The position numbers and the translations under genes are program-made. The notes under the pieces were generated by a model. That model made no database searches. It saw only the letters and a list, made by a program, of their open reading frames with translations, and was not told where the DNA came from. 64,000 nt of DNA. It comes from Candidatus Hydrothermia bacterium. GTDB taxonomy: Bacteria; Hydrothermota; Hydrothermia; UBA1063. The stretch lies in the NCBI GenBank assembly GCA_049719805.1, contig JBNARF010000002.1:15805-79804 (forward strand), read 5' to 3'. Below are positions 25,007-59,093 of the stretch, in pieces. The stretch's first letter is position 1. Each line of letters starts with the position of its first letter.

Positions 25007-28000
25007 GTGACTAACGAGTTTGTGAATTTTCATGGAAGATACCCTATTATTTTTTCCATGATAAAAAGTCGCTTCCTAAGGTTGTGTCCCAATTGCGGTG
25101 GTGATATTACCGATGAAAGGCTTTTTAAAGGTCTTCCCTGTCCGCGCTGTTTGCCAGATGAAGGGTTACCTTTAAAGGATGGTCTAAAATCTGGTGAGAT
25201 TTACGAATTTCTCAAGGTGCTTAATGAAGTAACATCGTGGTCTACCCATTTCGAGGCGCACATGAAATCATCCCCCTGGGGACTTCAGACTGCCTGGGCG
25301 AAGAGGGTTTTCCTTGGAAGATCCTTCGCATTACTTGCCCCTACCGGTGTGGGAAAAACTTCTTTCGGGGTCTCCATCGCCTCTTTCTTTTCCCTTAAAA
25401 ACTTTAGATCGTACATCATAGTCCCGACAATAATTCTTGTAAACCAGATCACGGATAAGCTACTTCAATTTGGCGTTCGAGAAGAAGAAATTCTTTCCTT
25501 TGGAGGAGAGGAATCCAGAAGTGAGTTGAAAGCAAAGAGAGATAGACTCAAATCGAGAGACTTCAGAATACTCGTTTCTACCTCAATGTTTTTATATCGA
25601 AACTATAATGATATTCCCCCGGACTTCGATTTCGTTTTTGTTGACGACGTGGATTCTTTCCTCAAAACAGCCAGAAATATAGATAAAGCATTGATAATTC
25701 TGGGCTTTGATTCGAAGGATGTTCAAGAGACTCTTCAATATATACTATTTAAAAGAAAGCCAAAGAAAACCAGTGATGACTTTGAAAAGTTAAGAGAATG
25801 GGAGGAGAAGATTAAAGATATTTCTCGAAAACGCAGGGGAGTACTTGTGGTATCCTCAGCAACATCAAGTCCTAGGTCCTTTCGTGTGGAACTCTTTAGA
25901 GAGCTTCTCGGCTTTGAAGTGGGTACCCCCACTTTTTATCTCAGAAACGTAGAGGACTTGTACGATCGTTCAGGTGAAAAGAGCCTATTTGAGTGGATAA
26001 AGACCCTGGGCAAGGGTGGACTTGTTTTCCTTTCGGCTGACCAGGGAAAAGAAAGGGTTAAGGAAGTGGTGGCGGAACTTGAAAGCAAGGGGATAAGGGC
26101 AGTTTCTTATGAAGATATCGATGATCTTGCCATCCGGGATTTTGAAGATGGTAAAATTGACGTTTTTGTAGGAATTGCCTCCTATCGAAATCCCCTCTCA
26201 AGAGGGTTTGATTTACCTCATGTAATAAGGTACGCAATATTCCTTGGCGTCCCTAAAATAGTTATTTCTCTGAAGATTGAGACCAATCCTACACATCTTC
26301 TCTGGGCACTATCTTCCATACGGAAACATCTTGCCAGAACCAATCCCGCGAAACTTAAAACCATAGATATTTACATGCAGAGGTTGAAAAAATTGGAAAA
26401 TATTGATCTAAAGAAATTGCCTGAAAATTCTTTGGTAAGGTCGAGATTTGAATCTTTGAGAAGGGAGGTACTAGAATTACTTAACTCTGCTGATGTTGTG
26501 GAATTTATGAAGGGTTCCTCTGAAATTAACTTAAGGCAAACTCCTGAGGGATTGGAAATGATAGTATCGGATGCCACCGGTTATCTACAGGCCAGCGGAA
26601 GAACGTCCAGAATGTATGGTGGGGGAATAACCAAGGGATTAAGCCTGATACTTGTGGATGATGAGGCAGCTTTCAGTCACCTCGTGAAAAAAGTGAAGTG
26701 GTTCAATGACGAAATCGAGTTTAAGGACGTTTCTAATGTGGATTTGCGTTCGATATTGGAGACCATTGATAGGGATAGGCAGACTTTAAAGGCGTATAAA
26801 GAGGGCAAAATAAGCGTAGAGAAGAAAGATCTACTAAAGCCCGTACTAATAATTGTGGAGTCACCCAATAAGGCTCGAACTATTGCTCGATTTTTCGGGA
26901 AACCCATAAGAAGGAAAGTGGGGACTCATGATCTCCTTGAGACATCGGTGGACGACAAATATCTTATAATTACTGCCTCACTGGGGCATGTTCTGGATTT
27001 AAATAAAGAGGTAGGATATCACGGTACTTTAATAGAAGATAAAGTAGTTCCCGTTTATGAACCCATAGAAGGGAAGGATGAAATAATTTCAAGTATTAGA
27101 AAAATGGCTATGGAATGTGAAGAGGTGCTCGTGGCTACTGACCCGGACACTGAGGGAGAGAAGATAGCATGGGATTTGTATGGACTGTTAAAGAGTTTTG
27201 CTCCGAATATTTGGAGAATGGAGTTTCATGAGGTGACCCGGAAGGCTATTCTGAACGGGCTTAGAAATCCCAGAGATTTAAATTTTGATCTTGTTAAAGC
27301 TTAGATTCTGCGGAGAATTTCAGATCGATGGGTGGGTTTTGAGTTTTCGGAATATTTACAGAGGAGATTCGGTAAAAAGAGTTTATCAGCAGGAAGGGTT
27401 CAGACCCCCGTTTTAGGATGGATAATTGAAAGGGAGAAAAAATACTACAGAAAACTCTACAAAATAGAGATTTATATGGGGGTAGGTGAACGCAAACTAA
27501 AGGTGGATTTTACATTTTCTGATGAAGACGAAGCCAGGGAGTTCTATGAAAATCTGGAAACCATTGAGATTTCAAAAATTGAAGGTAAAATTGTAGAAGT
27601 TAACCCTCTTCCACCTTACAGAACAGATACAATGCTGCAGGATGCATCTAATAAACTGAAATTTTCCCTTCCCAAAACCATGGAGCTGGCTCAGGATCTT
27701 TTTGAGATGGGTTACATTACATATCACAGGACAGATTCCGTAAGGGTTTCAGACGCGGGCATTAAAATTGCGAGAGAAATAATTGAGGAGGATTTTGGTA
27801 AAGAGTACTTTGTGCAGAGGAGCTGGGGTGAAGGGGGTGCTCACGAGTGTATTAGACCTGCCAGGGCTCTGGATCCTGAGGACCTGAAATCCCTTGTATT
27901 TACCGGTGAAACCGAGTACCTGAGCTATGATCACCTCGCACTTTATGAAATGATTTTTAAGAGGTTTATTGCCAGTGAGATGAGACCTGTTAAGGTGAGG

Positions 28001-28507
28001 GAACAACATGTGGAAGTGAAAGCACTTAATCTGAAGCAGGAAATAAAATTAAGGGTAGAAATTCTGGAAGATGGCTGGAATAAGGTTATTCCTTTGCATC
28101 TTGATCCAGAGCTCCCGTCGTCAATCAACGTTACAAGAAGCAAAAGATTTAGAACTGTTCCTGAGGCTTATCCATATACTCAGGGAGAACTGGTCTCAGA
28201 AATGAAAGAAAAGGGTATAGGAAGGCCTTCAACTTACGCCACCATCATTGAAAAACTTTTCGAAAGGTCCTATGTCATTGAAAAAAATGGATTTTTATTT
28301 CCCACTCATCTTGGAAAAAGAGTTTACGCGTTTTTGAATGCCAGAGAAAAAATCAGGGCCTTTGTCTCGGAGGAATTCACCAGAATTCTGGAGAAACTTA
28401 TGGACGAAGTTGAGGAAGGTAAAAAAGATTATCAAGAGATACTTCTGGATATTCTGGATAAGATGAGAGAAATCAGGAAAGAGCAGGGTTTTGCCAGTTT
28501 TGTATAG
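25007..28507 (+). CDS. rgy: reverse gyrase (helicase-like + topoisomerase IA), interrupted by a single in-frame TAG at 27302-27304
   Basis: N-terminal Zn finger CPNCGG...CPRC and Walker A APTGVGKT. TOPRIM IIVESPNKARTIARFFG, DPDTEGE, SAGRVQTP and active-site GYITYHRTDS. Total 1166 codons in one frame. The TAG sits where topo IA has AQQARR (here A*ILRR). True start probably the ATG at 25058 (MIKSRFLRLCPNCGG). Confidence 0.85.
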
Positions 28508-29268: not shown

Positions 29269-32200
29269 TTACTTTATTTTTACCTTATAGATAAAATAGC
29301 TGCTTTCTCCAGGTTTTAATACAGGGATAGGGCCCGGGGAATTGGAGTCAAGGTTGTACAGGTCTATTCGCAGGAACAGTGATCCATTTATATTCATAAT
29401 CCAGGCACCATCGGAATTTGTATCCTCGTTCTCTTCAGCTCTTAGATAGATTACAGTAACCCCGTCGGGGTAATGAAATTCTATATCTTTTGCTACTCCG
29501 AAAGCACCATTTACAAGTATCACCCAGGGATTAATAGGGTCGGTTATGATAATACTGTCAATATCTGCGATTCCGATATTTTTAAATCTAATTGTGTATG
29601 AGACAGTATCTCCCGGCCGTGCCTGTGCCTTATCCACCTCTTTTTTAAGACTTAAAGGTCCGGAAATAGTGGTTATGTCCACTACTTGACCTGTGTCAGT
29701 AATGGAGTTCTGGTTGGCGAAGGTGAAATTCAATGAAAACTTTGATATGTCCATACTGCCTGGTGTTGCATTTTGTGGTATAAAAGCCCTAACAAAGATA
29801 TACATCGTGTCAAATGGTGAGAGCGTAAAAGAAGGGGAAATAATAGTGTCGGGATTATCAAGCACACCATTTTTATTCACATCTTCTATAAATATCCATG
29901 TCCAGTTTTGAGTGCTTGACTGATTTATGCTTATAGTGCCTTCAGTACCTGAGATTATGATGTGTGGGTAATATACAGGCACGCCCGGCATTCCGGAGCC
30001 TGAGTTGTCATTCTCAAATACTATTCCCATCACGTCCCCAAAATTATAATTGGAGTAAACAACCCCTGAACTAAAGGTGGAAAACTCAACAGTATCAGCT
30101 CCCATAGGATTGCCGGAAACTCCTCCATCATGGTCACCCGTTGAAATGTAATCGGGTTTATTTTGCTCTACAAGATAAAAAGGCGGGGTTACGTCATAAG
30201 GAATCCAGAGCGTATAATCGCCGTTGTTGTCTGTAAGGGTAGATGCAATTAAATTCCCAGAAGCTTCGGCGAATACCAGAACTCCATTTATACCCCTTTC
30301 GCCGGTATCATAGACTCCATTGTTATTAGTGGATAGGGAAGCATTCTGTGCGTCGTAGAATACCTTACCAGTTATTCTGGAACCGTGATAATCGCCGAAA
30401 TACACATAAATATCAGAGGAAGCCTCCCAGTTTACCTCCTGCACGTTCGGTGTGGTGGATACGTAACCTGGAGGGTCTCCGCCAATTTCTGGATTAGAAC
30501 CTGCATTGTTATTAAAATCCTCTATAATTCTGTAAATACCAGTGTTAATGGGTGAAAATTCAAAGTATCCACTGCTATTACTCTCTATAAAGCTCTCCTC
30601 CTGCCAGTTTGTTCCATCAAAATACCAGAGCTCGATTCTCACACCTTCAATACCTCTTTCGGCATTATCCATGGTAAGATTGTGGTTTTGGTCCTCAAAC
30701 ACAAATCCCTTTATCCTGTTGGCGATAACTATTCCATAGTTGGCAGAAAATTCGCTGGTTCCGTAGTTTGGATTTGTTGCGGTAGCAGTAATGGAATCGT
30801 CCTTGGTAAGAGTTATGTATGATGGGACATTTATGTCACAGTTAAAAGTTCCGTCACTTTGCGTAATGCAGCTACCTATGTACCAGTGCCCTTCCCCATG
30901 AGGAACTCTCAACCCGTCTCCCTGAACAATTTCGCCCTCCTGAACCCCATCGTGGTCTGCCTTGTACACTTCAATGGTGAACACATCGGAGATGTGAGAA
31001 GATGGAGTGCCGACAAAACCTTCCACATGGAGTTTGGAGCCTCTTAGCTCAACCTTTGTGAAAATGGGATAGTCTATCCCGTAATTCTGCTGGTTGGAAT
31101 TTAAAATGCCGTCATTAGCCGTAACACTATCACCATTGGGGTTCACTGATCCATCTGTATGGGTCTGGTCAAGGTCAATGGAAAGAAGGCCATTGTTGTA
31201 AAAAGCATTCTGGCTTAAGATATTTTTCCGTGAAGGCTGTCTCAGGGTGCCAGTCTGAACTGCTACGACTGCAACGGCGTTTCCGGGAGCATCATGGATA
31301 ACGTTGTGTTCTACCAGGCTTCCGTCCCCAAATATTCTAATACCACACAACTCAAGATTAGTAGGTTGTTGACCACAGTAGTTTCCATGCTCATCACCCT
31401 GCCCTGTAAACCTTACAGTGTTTTGCCTCCACGTGTATGCACCTGTCGCCTGCCATGATTCAAGTCCATGTGATGCAACATATTCAATATAATTGTAATT
31501 TGCCTGGGCATCATTTCTGTCCCTTACATTTGTTGTACCCTCAAAGGTTATGCCATCTCCACAGGCACTCTGCAGAGCAATATGAGATAGGTAATTTCTT
31601 TCAACTATGGCAAGCCCCGGAATATAACATCCTGTTCCATTAACATAAGCGATGTAGTTGTGGAGTATGCATGCCTGCTGGTTAGCTGCGACATATACCC
31701 CATACTGGCCTCTGTAATCCAGGGTAGGGTCTCTGCCATCCGCTCTCACGCTGATAAAATTGTCACTTATGGTATCATTCGTTCCAGTCCTGACATAAAA
31801 AAGGTTAGTACTGTTGTTGAAAATGCCGATGTGAGACACTCTACAACCTGATGCACGAAAATCAATTCCCACTCCTCTATCATTTACATCAATTTCAAGT
31901 TCTGGTTTCTCAAACTGCGGAAGTACAGTCTCATCACCTGTACCAGGCACTCCGTCAGGGCCTGTACCCACCGGCTCTGGCGCGCTTATACCTCCAGGGT
32001 TTTCATCCCGGAGAGTTGAACCATCGGAGTAATGGTAGGCAGTTCCATCCACAACGGTCTGATTATCCGTTAATGCAGGTAAAGCTCCAAGAGAGGTGTT
32101 TAGTGTTACCTTCCACCAGTTTCCACCTCCACCTGACTCGTTTGTGAAGACCACTGGTACAAAGCGCATTACGTTTTTGCCTGTTATAGCATTGGCATTC

Positions 32201-51492: not shown

Positions 51493-52915
51493 TTTTAAAC
51501 CAGAGCATCTTACAGCGTTTATAAGGAACGGAGTTTTGGATACGCTTTTCGATGAACTTCTCTCCGGATTCTGGAATTTCTATCCCGATGTTCAGTTTGA
51601 AATTGTTAAAAGATTTGAGAATTTTAGTAAAAAGGACGACCTGGCTTTACTTCTTGTTAAGCACTTTGAGATTCCCTTTGAGGACGCCCGAAAACTAATT
51701 AACGGCCCGCGGTTTTATTTTAAAATACCAGCGTTTTTCGATGATATTCTGCAATTTGTAGATATTATTTTGATACCTGAAACCTCAAGAATTATGACCA
51801 ATTTCCTGGAGATAACAGACTATTTAGAGATCATCGGGAAATGCTGTGGGAAAAAGTTTTTTATATTTTTTGATAAATTCTTTGACGACGAGAGTTTTAT
51901 GCTGCAGGTAGCCACAGTATTGAGGCTAGGTAATGTACCTGACCGCTACTGGTTTTTGGGTGCGATTGATGGTAAGTGCAATATTTTGCCCATTAAGAAC
52001 CTTGACTTGAAATTGCCTCTGATGGAAATTCAGGGTAAGAGAGGGATTTCTTACCCTCTGGCAAAGAATGTGAGGGACATTGAAAGATGGTTAAAAATTG
52101 AGACACACCACATACCGATTTTGATTATTGAAACTAATAATGGAGATGCAGGCGATCTTTTTGCGAATTTTCTGGGTATTTTAGGTCCTGAGGCGGAAGC
52201 CTCCTTAGGTGCTTTAAAAGCACTCTTCGGAATAGACGAAGATAATCTAATATTTGTTTTCCCGGGATTTGATGGAAGAGAAGAATGGTGGGAAAAATTT
52301 TCTGGTTTTTGTGCTTTTCTCAGGAAGGTGGAGGGCATCACCAGGGGAAGAATGCATTTTCACTTCGGGATTAAGAGCTCTCCCGGACTGGCTATGGCTT
52401 TAGGTATTTTATTTGGCAGCATGATACCCTTCTCGATTTATGATTTGGAAAAGCTTAAATTGTGTAGTGTGGTGAGCAATGTGCGGGAGTTAAAGACCCG
52501 GGTTCCTGACTATAAAATTAGGCATAAATTCGAATTGAAAAATCAAAGTGATGCTATTGTATATTTTAGACACAGGGAAGCTTCGGATTTACCCATAAAG
52601 AAGATTCAAGAAAGGCTGGATCTTATGGATGCGTCTATTGTTTCCATATACTTGAGGGGCAAATTATCACAGTGTAGGGTTAAGTATGTGGAGGTGGTAA
52701 AAGGTGTAACGTCTTTTATTCAGGACCTGCGCAAAGTTCATCCCTTTGGGAGATTCCACTTTTTCCCCAATATTCCCGCAACTTTATCATTTCTTCTGGG
52801 TGTATCTCTGGGGCACTACATGGAAGGAGTTATTTACAATTTTAACAGGTTCACGGACTCCTGGGGAAGGGTGTTGACCTTTTCAGATCTCAAGAGGTTG
52901 AGGGAAAGGTCTTAA
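51476..52915 (+). CDS. hypothetical protein, paralog of 57633-59093; triplicated Rossmann-like beta/Gly-loop/helix motif (candidate CARF/SAVED/SLOG-like sensor fusion)
   Basis: 479 aa. Shares EDARK, SFML..., ERWL...H.P... motifs with the 57633 protein. Also shares MHFHFGIKSSPGLAMALGILFGSMIPFSIY (cf. YFHLAIKGPIPLGFALGIIFGSMLPFTIY) and FHFFPNIPATLSFLLGVSLGHY (cf. FHFFFSSPVSLAFLLGVVFGHY). Confidence 0.6.
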   Translation: MFRFIDFKPEHLTAFIRNGVLDTLFDELLSGFWNFYPDVQFEIVKRFENFSKKDDLALLLVKHFEIPFEDARKLINGPRFYFKIPAFFDDILQFVDIILIPETSRIMTNFLEITDYLEIIGKCCGKKFFIFFDKFFDDESFMLQVATVLRLGNVPDRYWFLGAIDGKCNILPIKNLDLKLPLMEIQGKRGISYPLAKNVRDIERWLKIETHHIPILIIETNNGDAGDLFANFLGILGPEAEASLGALKALFGIDEDNLIFVFPGFDGREEWWEKFSGFCAFLRKVEGITRGRMHFHFGIKSSPGLAMALGILFGSMIPFSIYDLEKLKLCSVVSNVRELKTRVPDYKIRHKFELKNQSDAIVYFRHREASDLPIKKIQERLDLMDASIVSIYLRGKLSQCRVKYVEVVKGVTSFIQDLRKVHPFGRFHFFPNIPATLSFLLGVSLGHYMEGVIYNFNRFTDSWGRVLTFSDLKRLRERS

Positions 52916-54809
52916 AATGCGGGATCTAAAAATTTTATTTATGCTGGGAGAAATAAAAAGGCCGGTTTAACAAAATAGCGGAAGTACTTCCTTAATTTGC
53001 CCAATTAATTAAGCAAAGAAAAAGAGGTGTAATATACTACTTTCTTGAATGTGTTTTGCCGGGGTGGGGCTTCAGTTAAATAGGGTGCAAGTTTATGAAT
53101 AATAGGCAGTATAGATTTTAGTAAGTACGCTCTTGGGGTTAAAAAGTCTGGGAGAACCGTATCTTAAGGGGTAAGGACAAAATTTTTCCCTTACAGAAAA
53201 ATAAATGTTTAGACTGAAGTTCAAAATCAATGCCAGAATCATTAGAATCAAATTCTGATCCAGAACAATAATCCCTATACTGAAGCTATAAAACTTCTCG
53301 TCCTCGTAACGGGATGCCGAATTATAAATGCAAAATCAAGCCATTTCCGCTAAAAGTACTTTCAAAAATTCAGAGCCTGTGGATAACCTCGCTGAATTTG
53401 TAAGAAAAGGTATCTAACAAAAGCCGTCGAGCAGGTTTTACCTTGTTAACTTCTTGCAGGTTATACCATCCTTTCAAACCTTACCATTACAGTGGATAAC
53501 GAGCGAAACAGGTGGAGAGGAAAAATATGGGGCAAGTTGTGTAAAAAGTGACTCTGGGTGAACATGTTTTGTTTCTGGAAACTTAGTTAGAGCGAAAATC
53601 GAGCTTTTTAAGTTTACGGATAACCAAAACACCAGGGAAAACGTTGAAGGTGGTGCAATTGTGTAATCTTAACTGGGGACCAGTTAATGACAATGAGCAA
53701 AAACTTTATTGATTCTGGAGTTATCTTCTCGGACTTTGCCGCCCGGGAACAATTTATCGTTTAGATTGGTGTCCAGTTCTTAAGTTCTAACAGGTAGGAA
53801 TGCGAACAATAGCAAGACACAGATCGCTGTTTAATAGATAGTAAACAAGTTTGGCCTGTGAAAGAAGATTTACCGGAAGCAGGAACGGGATCGTTTTGAT
53901 GAATACGTTACTGTTCTTAAAAATGTGAGGTATTTTTATGGCGATCAGACTTACCCGCGGCATTTCGGAAATCTAACGAAAATAGTTGAGGGGTAGAAAA
54001 TCAAAGAGGGTTAAGGAGTAGTGGGAGTTGGAAAACAACAGGTTTAACAAGGAGTATCTGGTTTTATGAAATCGGAATCAAGATGCTTTTCAGGGAATAT
54101 AGTTTGTGTTATAAGTATCGTTTTTACTCCTTACTGAACAATGTGCTTATGATGTCTGGTGGGACATAGACTTTGTGTAAAGTTGAGACCTTGCGGCAAT
54201 ATTTTTTTTAAATAAAGATTTGATGGGACGTGACGCTGGTTGTATCAGATTTACCAAAACTTCAAAGTATTCTTAGTTTTTGAAGATAAAATTATGCGGG
54301 TGATAAAGATCGATATTGTGCATAACATGGGCACTTCTTCTGGGTTTACCACGTCTCAGGCTGAAAGGAGTGAAAGCCATTTATTTTATCAAAATAACGG
54401 ATATACAGGCTCGGGTGGATCTTGGTACTGCCAAAATTTGCCTTTAAACGGGTTCTAAGGGCTTTTATTATGGAATATCCGTGGATATTGCCTGATTTTA
54501 GGATTTTTGCCATTTTAATAAAGCTTTATGCCTTAGTTATTTTGATGATTGACTAACCGATGGATGCACGAAAGTTAATGCATAATAAATCCGGAAAGTA
54601 ATAGAAAGCCATGAACCGCGGGGCACTGTTATGATAAATATTGTTTACCAGACTTTGAGTTTCTTTGCTTCATTTTCTTATACTGCTTTAAACGCTATTT
54701 ACTCATGTCCAATATTTTTTCTGCCCCGGGAAGGCTTTAATTCTACGAAAAATTAAGCCTTCCTTGACTCGGACTTTTTTGAACATTAACATTTTTATAA
54801 GTTCTGTTT

Positions 54810-55562
54810 ATGAGACTCAAGCTTACTTTCAAACCCGTTTCTGATTATATAGCCCTACCCATTCACTATAATCACATGGTTCAGGCTTTCATTTATTCGT
54901 CCCTAGAGCAAGACATCGCAAACTGGCTTCACGAAAAGGGGTTTGAATACGGTCCCGGGAAATTTAAACTCTTCACTTTTTCCTGGATATTCGGGAAGAA
55001 AAGGATAGAGAGTGGTCGATTTATTTTCTACGATAGATTCTGATTCTTTATATCAAGTCCTGTGGAACAAATGCTTGAGTCTTTTGTTAAAAAATTTTTT
55101 CAAAAAAGCAAAATAGAATTTGGAGGTCAGGAGTGTCTCCTGGAAAGCGTAAAAGTGGAGCCTGCAAGAGAACTGAAGTCTTCCCTTGTTATTCGCATGA
55201 TTTCTCCGATTACCGTTTATTCCATTTTTGGGAAGGATGGGAGGAAGAAAACTTACTACTATTCACCCTTTGAAAAGGATTTTGAACGTTTAATATTAGA
55301 AAATTTTGAATAAAAGGTTGAGGCTTTTTATGGAAAAGGCGATTATCCGGAGTTGAAAGATGCCCACCTGCAACCTGTAGATGTAAAAGGTGAGGATTTT
55401 CACATTGTGAAATTTAAGGGATTCATGATAAAGGGTTGGTCTGGTATTTATAAGTTGGACCTTCCGGAGCCTTACCTTTCTATAGCTTATTATGCTGGTA
55501 TTGGCAGCAAAAATTCTCAGGGTTTTGGAATGTGGGACGTTTTAAAGGAGCTTAAGAAATGA
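54810..55562 (+). pseudogene. cas6: cas6 (CRISPR repeat endoribonuclease) interrupted by two in-frame stops (TGA 55041-55043; TAA 55311-55313), no frameshift
   Basis: Three consecutive ORFs in the same frame. N-terminal MRLKLTFKPVSDYIALPIHYNHMVQAFIYS is a Cas6 ferredoxin-like start. C-terminal G-rich loop AGIGSKNSQGFGMWDV. Combined length 251 codons, the size of Cas6. Confidence 0.65.
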
Positions 55563-55619
55563 ATGTCAAATTTTTAAATTTTTGGGGTTATATGGTAAAT
55601 GAAGAGGGAGTTCTAAATT

Positions 55620-55910
55620 ATGGGTATAAGGGATCGGGAATTAAGCGAAAGGGAAAGGATAGCCCTGGGTGCATTATTACATGATATTGGAAAAGTGGTG
55701 CAAAGAGCCAGCGATAATCCAAGCGCAAAAACCCATCAGGAATTTGGCGAAAAGTGGATAGAAAGTCATTTGCCTGCTCCCCTGGGCGGTGAGTTGAAGT
55801 TTTTCTCTAAATATCATCATTTCAATCCAGAATCGCATCCAGAGCTGGATGTTAGTATACCGTGAAGGAACGATTTAATACTTGTTTTGCATGCCGCTGA
55901 TTGTACTTAA
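55620..55910 (+). pseudogene. cas10/csm1 N-terminal HD-domain fragment (in-frame TGA at 55863-55865; rest of gene missing)
   Basis: LGALLHDIGKVVQRA...KTHQEFGEKWIESHL...KYHH resembles the Csm1/Cas10 HD N-terminus (LLHDIGK + QRA). After the TGA the same frame continues as RNDLILVLHAADCT (HD motif V-like). Only ~96 codons, against ~750 for Cas10. Confidence 0.5.
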
Positions 55911-55936
55911 CTTTTTCAATTTTAAGAGGCAGTGTC

Positions 55937-57301
55937 ATGAAAATTCTTATTGGGATAATTGGAGATTTCTATAAATACCAGGTTTTTAAGTACACGAATA
56001 ATGGACAAGAAATAGACGCAAAATGCTCGCTTTTCGCACTCATGAGAATGTTAAATCCAGATTTAACTTTGTTGGTAGTTCTTGATAGTCTGGTTGACAT
56101 TCTGAATAAAAAGTACCCTGAGCTAAAATCCTCTAATTCGTACATTGAGTTAAAAGGCAGATTAGTGAAGGTAGTCCGCCAGGGGCTCCTATCGGAAAAA
56201 ATTGTCACCCAAGAAGAGTTGAATGAATTTAAGGTGAAATTTTTAATTATACCTTCGGTTGGTTCTTACGGAGATTTGCGTTTTAAAGGTGAAATTACCG
56301 ACTTTTACTACGAATTGTACTATGGAACTGGTCTTAAATTCGCTGGATTGCTTGCGGGCATAAAGAACTTTGAGGAAGATGCGGAAATATTTTTTGACGT
56401 TTCTCTGGGTGCCAATTACACGAATGTTATACTTTATAAAGTTTTGAGGGAGTTGGCAGCTATATTTTCTCTTTCCGGAAGGAGAGTAAAACTAAGAATT
56501 TTAAACACTGAACCAATTATCCCTTACAGAGAAAACTCGACGTCAGCTTTAAATGAGATCGAAGCAGCCGAGTTCCGTAAATCCCTGACATTTTCTACTA
56601 GAAAACTCAAAGGTTCTGAGTTACCCCTTAAAAATATTTCAAAGGAGTATGTGAAAGCTAAAGAAAACTATAAAGAAGAGTTAAATTCCCGTGGATTGGA
56701 CTTGAGGTTAGGGAATAGGGATGTTTCGTGTTTTCTAAGTAGCGTAAAGAACGGTATTCCTCTTGGTGTATATTACTTTTTCCCGGATATTTCACTCTTG
56801 AGTAAAGTTGCCAGATTGTCATACAAGTTTTATTTGAAAAGCGTTAAGTTTCACAGGGATGAAAGCTTGATCATCGAAAGGGGACTAAAGTTGACACCTT
56901 GCTTTAAGACTTACGTTCAGGCTATCTTAGTGGCTCAGGCCTTGAGTTCTTTGGGGGTGGAAAAAAGAGAAAGTGTTTTGAGTAGTGAAATAGAATCTCT
57001 GTCGGAAAAGCTATATGAAAGGTGCAAGGTTATTGGGGATAGAATTAAGCAGGAAATTTCGCGTCTTAATAAAGAAATAAGAAACTACCCTAAAGCCAGA
57101 TGGAAAGTGATGGGAGAGGAAAAGAGCAGAGGTAATACGGTTCGAAATTTCTTCGCTCACGTCGGAATTGTCAGAAATTTGACGGAGATCTGGGTAGAAG
57201 ATGAGAAGTCCAAAGTTTGGAAAGTTAGATTTAGAAAAACGGAGGAGAGTATTAAGCAGATTGCAAACTTCCTCCTGAATGCTGCCGATGAGGCGGAGTG
57301 A
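55937..57301 (+). CDS. CARF-HEPN family protein (Csx1/Csm6-like cOA-activated RNase)
   Basis: ORF track starts at 55901 (TTG). The ATG at 55937 has an AAGAGG RBS. Begins MKILIGIIGD (CARF-like first strand). C-terminal HEPN motif VRNFFAHVG matches RNxxAHxG (R-X4-H). About 455 aa. Confidence 0.6.
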   Translation: MKILIGIIGDFYKYQVFKYTNNGQEIDAKCSLFALMRMLNPDLTLLVVLDSLVDILNKKYPELKSSNSYIELKGRLVKVVRQGLLSEKIVTQEELNEFKVKFLIIPSVGSYGDLRFKGEITDFYYELYYGTGLKFAGLLAGIKNFEEDAEIFFDVSLGANYTNVILYKVLRELAAIFSLSGRRVKLRILNTEPIIPYRENSTSALNEIEAAEFRKSLTFSTRKLKGSELPLKNISKEYVKAKENYKEELNSRGLDLRLGNRDVSCFLSSVKNGIPLGVYYFFPDISLLSKVARLSYKFYLKSVKFHRDESLIIERGLKLTPCFKTYVQAILVAQALSSLGVEKRESVLSSEIESLSEKLYERCKVIGDRIKQEISRLNKEIRNYPKARWKVMGEEKSRGNTVRNFFAHVGIVRNLTEIWVEDEKSKVWKVRFRKTEESIKQIANFLLNAADEAE

Positions 57302-57632
57302 AGTGATGATACAACTGTCCAGTGATCCTTATGATCTGATACACTTCACAAATTTTCGCGGTTCAGGCATTTTAATACTTTTTGGGAGTAAAGAGGATCG
57401 GGTTAATGATTGGCGTGACTTTGGCTGAGAAATCCGATCAAAAAGGCGTATCTGCAATTTATTGTTATAGCTACCGCTCGAAAGGAAAACGGGCAATTTT
57501 GCTTTTTTGTGGTCTATGCATCAGGGTATCATTTTGCTTTTATATGGCATGAGCCGAAGAATATCATATGAAGATATAAGCATTTTTAAGATAGTTGTTC
57601 ATTAAAAATGCCGGGATTAAAGGAGGTACTAG

Positions 57633-59093
57633 ATGAAGCACTGGTATGAGTTAGATACGAATCAGTTTATTGAGCACCTCGAATCGGGTGGGCTGAATGA
57701 TTATCTTGATGAAATCATAGAAAACTTCCCTAAATTTGCCGATAAACCTGAAGTGCAATTTGAGCTGATAAGGTATATAAAAGAAAAAAGGCCTCCAGTT
57801 TCTCTCACCACCTGGGTAAAAGGTCTGGGCATTTCTGAGGAGGATGCTCGCAAAGTCTATAATAATCCCTATCGGATAATGAACTATGTGGTGATTCACG
57901 GAGAAAGCGGCGAAATTTCTCAGATGTTAATTATAAAGAATACAGGCAGTCTCATTACGAATCTTGAAAGTGTGAAAAAAGATCTGGAAGTGATCACATC
58001 TTATGTGAAATCAAATTTTGCCGTTTTTTTCAAAACTCCTTTCTATGGACAGAGTTTTATGTTACCCTTAACGGTGGGGCTACTTGTGGTTCATATTCCA
58101 TCGAATCTAGTGTTCACCGGCAAGGTAGATGAAAAGGGAAAGGTTTACGATGTGGAGGGTGTATCCATTAAAAGAAAAGTCGCACAAAACTCAGGCTATA
58201 AATTGATAGATCCCTCTATTGTCCCTGATGTTTCCTTTATTAAACGGTGGCTAGATGCAGAGATTTACCATGTGCCACTGTGCGTTACATATTCGAGTGG
58301 TGAGCCCGCTACTACGGATTTTGAGAGGCTTTGTGATTCCATTTCAGGATTCGATAGAGAAACACTTTTGGTGCTCAAGGAATTTATGGACATCGATACC
58401 TCACTTCTTATTGTATCTACGGGAACTATGGAGAGTAGAGAGGACTGGATTAATTCCCTTAACAAATTTCGTAGAGCTATTGCAGTCATAAACAAAAAAC
58501 TCCAGGATCGTGTATACTTTCACCTGGCAATAAAAGGTCCCATTCCTCTGGGGTTTGCTCTTGGTATTATTTTTGGAAGTATGTTACCCTTTACTATATA
58601 CCATTTCCAGAATAATCAATATTTTCCCATAGAGGTCTCAGATGTAAGATATTTGAAGGGGCGAGTCAAGGAACAAAACTACGATCCTTTAGTGGTTAGC
58701 TTTATAGAAGGAAATGGTGGTGATGTGGCAGTGGTTATCTCCATGTCCCACCATGAACCCCTTGCCACTGCAAAAAGTTTTTTAATTCAGAGATTTGGAG
58801 CGACACCCTCCATTCTCCTCCTTGAACATCCTCTGAAGGGTGATGTGCCTGTTGAAGAGTATTTTGAGGTTGCAAGGAAAATGGCAAGTGTTATTCAGGA
58901 TGTTCGGGGAAAAAGATCCGTTGATAAATTTCACTTTTTCTTCTCATCGCCCGTAAGCCTGGCGTTTCTCCTTGGTGTTGTTTTTGGGCATTACGGCTCT
59001 GCGGAAATTTATCATTACGATAATAAGAGGCAGACTTACATAAATGTTATAAGCCTTGATGAATTGAAGAAAATAAGAGAGAATTCATATTGA
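57633..59093 (+). CDS. hypothetical protein, paralog of 51476-52915 (same triplicated motif), immediately downstream of csx1-like gene
   Basis: 486 aa. GGAGG RBS. Motifs as listed for the 51476 protein. Conserved C-terminus ...ISLDELKKIRENSY vs ...TFSDLKRLRERS. Confidence 0.6.
   Translation: MKHWYELDTNQFIEHLESGGLNDYLDEIIENFPKFADKPEVQFELIRYIKEKRPPVSLTTWVKGLGISEEDARKVYNNPYRIMNYVVIHGESGEISQMLIIKNTGSLITNLESVKKDLEVITSYVKSNFAVFFKTPFYGQSFMLPLTVGLLVVHIPSNLVFTGKVDEKGKVYDVEGVSIKRKVAQNSGYKLIDPSIVPDVSFIKRWLDAEIYHVPLCVTYSSGEPATTDFERLCDSISGFDRETLLVLKEFMDIDTSLLIVSTGTMESREDWINSLNKFRRAIAVINKKLQDRVYFHLAIKGPIPLGFALGIIFGSMLPFTIYHFQNNQYFPIEVSDVRYLKGRVKEQNYDPLVVSFIEGNGGDVAVVISMSHHEPLATAKSFLIQRFGATPSILLLEHPLKGDVPVEEYFEVARKMASVIQDVRGKRSVDKFHFFFSSPVSLAFLLGVVFGHYGSAEIYHYDNKRQTYINVISLDELKKIRENSY

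Follow-up and report, generated by a model that had tools for sequence, protein, structure and literature searches.

The loci closest to the one studied here are of the type III-A (Csm) kind. A more distant WOR-3 MAG (contig L028) possesses the gene order cas6-cas10-csm2-5, and its Cas10, the nearest full-length relative, comprises 803 aa. The same genes occur on two contigs of the Logan assembly of run DRR082460, which represents a sister strain of our organism. One of them, L031, carries cas6 and, after it, an ORF that runs off the contig end with a length of 776 aa or more, aligns with the cas10 N-terminus of our sequence and is read as full-length cas10. The other, L032, carries csm2-csm3-csm4-csm5-csx1, a 54-aa ORF and a Lon-SAVED gene. 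A literature search for DRR082460 gave no result.

Three further systems are of relevance. The Cas6 family (TIGR01877) includes the enzyme of P. furiosus, whose triad comprises Tyr31, His46, and Lys52. The CalpL-CalpT-CalpS system combines a CRISPR-Lon protease, an anti-sigma factor, and a sigma factor. Finally, unitary pseudogenes of the PGAP category 'internal stop' account for 16% of PGAP pseudogenes in GC-rich mycobacteria, a low share that was ascribed by the authors to high GC content (PMC9676053).

The window, i.e. the whole 64-kb stretch of DNA analysed here, belongs to a MAG of the class now named Caldifarciminia, from the former phylum WOR-3 (Candidatus Hydrothermia), with a genomic GC content of ~40%. 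It harbours an interrupted cas6 at positions 54810-55562. With a probability of about 0.9, this gene is a unitary pseudogene, recently inactivated, and the type III-A (Csm) CRISPR-Cas locus to which it belongs in Candidatus Hydrothermia (WOR-3/Caldifarciminota) is decaying. Such a cas6 is a case of ordinary gene decay. It resembles the internal-stop pseudogenes in carrying nonsense changes of a single base each where an ortholog is intact, and in its location within a dispensable accessory locus undergoing deletion, and differs from them in nothing notable.

The cas6 reading frame and its intact counterpart

The cas6 region on the forward strand is a single frame throughout, from ATG at 54810 to a terminal TGA at 55560-55562. 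It contains 251 codons including the terminal stop, namely 248 sense codons and two internal stops, TGA at 55041-55043 and TAA at 55311-55313, with no other stop in frame. Owing to these two codons, an uninterrupted full-length cas6 ORF is absent from the window. The sequence-only reading had placed three ORFs (54810-55043, 55062-55313, and 55353-55562) in one frame of 251 codons, and our re-derivation gave the identical result.

The translation with masked stops matched the NCBIfam profile TIGR01877 with 140.4 bits (E value 9.5e-41; cut-off 58.65) over residues 49-242 in one stretch, so that both stops fall within one continuous profile alignment. Pfam N-terminal and C-terminal domains of Cas6 (PF21350 and PF01881) were matched as well. 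By these scores, the homology of this region to Cas6 lies far beyond chance. The encoded protein is collinear with the family over the full length and 59% identical to a WOR-3 Cas6. In an end-to-end alignment with 20 homologs, it retains all of the columns that are invariant there, including the Gly-rich loop, which was previously noted at the C-terminal end and was found there as GIGSKNSQGFGM. The protein could also be aligned to the solved structures 5yi6 and 3pkm, the latter being the Cas6 of P. furiosus. Residues Y29, H41, and K53 align to the motifs YNA, LHE, and KLFTYS of 3pkm and correspond in position to the P. furiosus triad. The differences from the family, apart from the two stops and the lack of an adjoining CRISPR array or effector-complex genes, include a Gly at position R50, where 120/120 homologs possess Arg, and an Ile in place of the near-invariant Thr139.

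An intact comparator was available as P0144, a 250-aa Cas6 encoded at positions 128-880 of L031 and belonging to the same protein cluster as the 77-aa N-terminal fragment encoded upstream of stop 1. The 250 codons of the window gene are collinear with it, and the alignment of L031 with window positions 54683-55885 shows 92.8% identity and 0 gaps over 1203 nt. The earlier statement that cas6 is free of indels is thus upheld, and the comparison of orthologous cas6 genes proposed with it reveals sense codons at both stop sites. Stop 1 corresponds to TGG (Trp78) in the intact ortholog and represents a single-base G>A transition (TGG>TGA), while stop 2 corresponds to AAA (Lys168) and represents a single-base A>T transversion (AAA>TAA). 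The Lys168 column is occupied by R or K in 118/120 homologs. The L031 allele is an imperfect proxy of the ancestor, being ~7% diverged from the window at the DNA level and carrying odd substitutions of its own (K53E and Y137C).

The first of these substitutions places a Glu in P0144 at the site aligned to the catalytic Lys. The residue R50, invariant in 120 homologs, is lost in both alleles, being replaced by Gly in the window and by Glu in P0144, and K49P and R59W are common to the two alleles. Judged from these sequences, cas6 may already have been under relaxed constraint when the window and DRR082460 lineages separated.

A scan of GTDB genomes with Cas6 peptides yielded relatives at 42% identity or less only, and a protein search with the middle Cas6 fragment gave no match at E values of 1e-20 or below. 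Two scans of JGI metagenome DNA, one with the region of stop 1 containing NNN and the other with the conserved 5' end of cas10, also gave no match.

Loss of the Csm core

The window retains the order cas6-cas10 and, further downstream, csx1 and Lon-SAVED, all in synteny with the sister strain at 93-96% DNA identity. The two loci differ in the part between these genes. At 55620-55901 (forward strand), the window contains only a cas10/csm1 stub of ~94 codons, which corresponds to the N-terminus of the HD domain (positions 2-64 of 753 in TIGR02578; residues 10-89 of 803 in a tblastn alignment with the L028 protein) and thus retains residues up to ~89-94. A full-length Cas10/Csm1 with Palm/cyclase domains is absent from the window, and a tblastn search with the L028 proteins revealed no match to Csm2-5 in the 64 kb. 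Csm2, csm3, csm4, and csm5 are therefore missing, and so is the signal-producing and RNA-targeting core; the ancillary effector genes alone are intact. No CRISPR array was found within the window.

The similarity to cas10 of L031 ends, and that to the csm5-csx1 spacer of L032 begins, at 55896-55901, a 6-bp GCTGAT shared at the switch. On the side of L032, the similarity starts 15 nt before the csm5 stop and continues over window positions 55896-58704 with 95.6% identity. The switch at a shared hexanucleotide is the signature of a microhomology-mediated deletion. This deletion comprises at least 5.5 kb, a minimum obtained by summing the unaligned portions of L031 and L032, and accounts for ~700 codons of cas10 and for csm2-csm5.

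Smaller lesions are also present. The stub contains an in-frame TGA at 55863-55865, as had been reported for the neighbouring cas10 fragment; the corresponding codon of L031 is GGT (Gly), a two-base change. Relative to L032, the window has a 3-nt gap at 55914. The decay of the locus is thus the usual mix of deletion, indel, and substitution, and the indel-free status is limited to cas6. The sequence-only reading had spoken of inactivation by nonsense changes exclusively, a description that does not hold for the locus as a whole, in which the cas10 'fragment' is what a deletion of 5.5 kb or more has left and two small length changes, a gap of 3 nt and an insertion of 1 nt, occur as well. It had also named overlooked frameshifts as a sign of ordinary decay; none occurs in cas6, and these two small changes are located elsewhere in the locus. 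The insertion, at 57503 in a T-run, was seen in comparison with L032 and shifts the frame of the 54-aa ORF called between csx1 and Lon-SAVED.

The divergence between the two strains is unevenly distributed. Codons 1-61 of cas10 are identical to those of L031 at the DNA level, while 17 of the 26 codons from 62 to 87 differ (a patch of ~21% divergence), and the TGA of the stub is situated within this patch. This mosaic suggests, on the basis of the alignment, that recombination tracts are present inside the CRISPR locus. Divergence also reaches ~20% in the 100 nt preceding cas6, while the housekeeping flank at 61859-63597 (L030) is 99.4% identical.

A 1.9-kb stretch upstream of cas6 (52916-54809) lacks ORFs of at least 80 aa. 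Comparison by tblastx with 29 CRISPR loci, a six-frame Pfam search, TRF, a repeat search, and Rfam revealed no gene or array remnant and no repeats in this stretch. The gap is unusually long for the otherwise tightly packed window.

Retained genes for predicted cOA sensors

Five genes around the interrupted cas6, all on the forward strand, are predicted by family annotation to be receivers of Cas10-made cyclic oligoadenylate (cOA). Downstream of it, csx1 (CARF and HEPN domains; 55937-57301) and a gene for CRISPR-Lon (Lon protease and SAVED domains, CalpL-like; 57633-59093) are intact ORFs identified by family profiles. Upstream, a second, paralogous CRISPR-Lon/SAVED gene (51476-52915), also intact and identified in the same way, is preceded by a gene for a CRISPR-T-like protein (50575-51492; PDLC01048 CRISPR-T, 6.4e-11; PDLC01140, 1.3e-17), a CalpT-like partner of CRISPR-Lon. 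The fifth gene (49857-50627) encodes an HTH protein with weak similarity to sigma-70 ECF factors, possibly CalpS-like (PADLOC HTH, 2.7e-09; TIGR02937, E value 0.0035, below the cut-off).

The arrangement at 49857-52915, an HTH/sigma-like gene followed by a CRISPR-T-like gene and Lon-SAVED, is similar to that of CalpL-CalpT-CalpS, and a second Lon-SAVED gene is located 3' of csx1. The differences are the weak sigma assignment, which is below the NCBIfam cut-off, and the lack of a local Cas10 cyclase for this predicted module.

The sensor genes are intact although the sole visible Cas10 has been deleted, and the dN/dS values of the two comparable ones are 0.12-0.38. The orphaned sensors may be served in trans by a cyclase encoded elsewhere in the genome, or they may be next to decay.

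Origin of the internal stop codons

The 77-aa N-terminal fragment of Cas6, the 81-aa HD fragment of Cas10, csx1, and the 486-aa SAVED protein are each present in three NCBI MAGs. The accessions are consecutive in each of these MAGs: the 479-aa SAVED protein (.18), the N-terminal Cas6 fragment (.19), the N-terminal Cas10 fragment (.20), Csx1 (.21), and the 486-aa SAVED protein (.22). The three MAGs are distinct assemblies: their contigs measure 580, 444, and 193 kb, their 479-aa SAVED proteins differ at one residue, and the states of their reverse gyrase genes differ. The comparison was made through annotated proteins, which show directly that all three possess stop 1 and the cas10 stub. Stop 2 is presumably shared too, given that no protein is annotated between the fragments and that the accessions are consecutive. 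Stop 1 and the truncation of cas10 have thus probably been inherited within this lineage, and a single error of one consensus is an unlikely source of them. In the PGAP annotation, the N-terminal fragment of Cas6 appears alone, as 'hypothetical protein', with no flag for a cas6 pseudogene. The three MAG records should read cas6 pseudogene and cas10 remnant, not 'hypothetical protein' and 'HD domain-containing protein'.

A further in-frame stop, also listed in the sequence-only reading, occurs in the reverse gyrase gene (25007-28507), which is split by TAG at 27302-27304, where the topoisomerase domain begins. The TAG replaces a near-invariant Gln (CAG) and is private to the source MAG; both sibling MAGs possess Gln. 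The intact reverse gyrase of 1149 aa is encoded in the two siblings and in a Logan contig, and these proteins are otherwise identical to that of the window or differ in one further residue. Two origins of the TAG are conceivable: a knockout, very recent and confined to this strain, of a gene that is a hallmark of thermophiles, or else a minor variant or an artefact of the consensus.

The source sequence is a MAG, and the stops in cas6 could in principle be artefacts of its consensus, with sense codons in the actual genome; the private TAG of the reverse gyrase gene could be of this nature. This explanation, which had been offered earlier as one of the alternatives, is very unlikely for cas6 because three MAGs, assembled separately and differing in contig size and slightly in sequence, have the same annotated products, one of 77 aa ending at stop 1 and one of 81 aa representing the cas10 stub. 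The adjoining multi-kb deletion independently marks the locus as defunct. The 64 kb contain three genes with a total of four in-frame stops and no frameshift in these frames, and this could also be ascribed to a single process biased towards nonsense changes, such as cytosine deamination at high temperature or the action of a deaminase. The four changes are all of differing type, however: TGG>TGA is a G>A change, AAA>TAA is A>T, GGT>TGA involves two bases, and CAG>TAG is C>T. An origin of all stops by C>T changes (from CGA, CAA, or CAG) was rejected on the codons of the intact ortholog, with C>T remaining for the reverse gyrase alone. The distribution differs as well, the reverse gyrase lesion occurring in one MAG and stop 1 of cas6 and the cas10 stub in three, and the remaining pairs of same-frame ORFs in the window are separate genes. 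A common process is likewise very improbable. Of the earlier claim that cas10 and reverse gyrase show the same kind of lesion as cas6, the in-frame stops are real, but they do not represent one phenomenon.

The least probable explanation is programmed or tolerated readthrough, or recoding, by which full-length Cas6 would still be made, for example with near-cognate Trp inserted at TGA. The ancestral residue at this TGA is indeed Trp, the frame is otherwise whole, and the positions of the P. furiosus Tyr, His, and Lys are retained. Yet two different stops need to be bypassed, one of which is TAA, and the ancestral codons are plain TGG and AAA, with W and with K or R in the orthologs, which does not point to a recoding site. 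There is no sign of recoding because TAA, TGA, and TAG all terminate normal genes (20, 15, and 6, respectively, of the 41 intact ORFs). Searches for tRNA genes and Rfam elements yielded none in the 64-kb window, so that neither a suppressor tRNA nor an RNA element is present here, and the genes of the partners that Cas6 would need for a function here are deleted. Readthrough was also ranked last in the sequence-only reading. A related possibility, that unusually leaky termination in this lineage, or else a suppressor tRNA whose gene is located beyond the window, renders the stops in both cas6 and reverse gyrase tolerable and allows full-length proteins to be made, is only marginally more credible. 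A milder variant has greater plausibility: Csx1, the Lon-SAVED pair, and the CalpT-like protein, intact and still constrained, may be retained because a cyclase encoded elsewhere in the genome activates them in trans now that the local Cas10 is gone. A CRISPR array or a further type III locus beyond the visible 64 kb could in principle still need Cas6.

The preferred reading of cas6 as a recently inactivated pseudogene involves the following events. The ancestral arrangement was likely that surviving in the DRR082460 strain, in which L031 carries cas6-cas10 and L032 carries csm2-csm3-csm4-csm5-csx1-(54-aa ORF)-Lon/SAVED. In the lineage of the window, cas10 beyond about codon 94 and the whole of csm2-csm5 were removed by a microhomology-mediated deletion spanning 5.5 kb or more. 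Two nonsense changes, each of one base, arose in cas6 (TGG>TGA at Trp78 and AAA>TAA at Lys168), and the cas10 stub gained its TGA. Lacking both its effector partners and an array in the vicinity, cas6 would be free of selection, and its translation would end after 77 residues. The lesions themselves are seen in the comparison with the intact strain, whereas their order, the deletion first and the nonsense changes later, is inferred.

The dN/dS values between the window and the DRR082460 allele, calculated by the Nei-Gojobori method, were 0.23 for cas6, 0.21 for the cas10 stub, 0.38 for csx1 (versus L032), and 0.12 for the Lon-SAVED gene at 57633-59093. Since the value of cas6 is not above those of its intact neighbours (0.12-0.38), most of the divergence arose under constraint, before inactivation, and the inactivation looks recent. 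Recent pseudogenization had been the first alternative considered in the initial examination, and it agrees well with the dN/dS of 0.23 and with the intact codons of the ortholog.

The computed share of random single-base substitutions that create a stop in cas6 is about 4-5%, which is approximately of the same order as the indel-to-substitution ratios typical of bacteria in mutation-accumulation studies. The occurrence of two nonsense changes and zero frameshifts in ~750 nt is therefore unremarkable, and inactivation purely by nonsense, which had been considered notable, loses its special character given a chance of 0.04-0.05 per substitution.

Beyond the correction of the annotation, the finding has little significance. 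The locus is a natural example of the dismantling of a type III-A system, in which the core would have been lost in one microhomology deletion and cas6 point-mutated thereafter, while the cOA-sensing genes look intact. It raises the modest question of whether such orphaned sensors are served in trans or are simply next to decay.

Other same-frame ORFs in the window have a different nature. Neighbouring same-frame pairs were considered as split genes and rejected, as they encode unrelated domains. On the reverse strand, the region 29269-43467 contains three consecutive same-frame genes of 942, 2359, and 1421 aa with single TAA stops between them, the third of which begins at a TTG directly after the stop. 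Their interpretation as one stop-crossing gene was rejected as well, each ORF having its own signal-peptide-like N-terminus. These giant genes probably encode surface or adhesin-like proteins.
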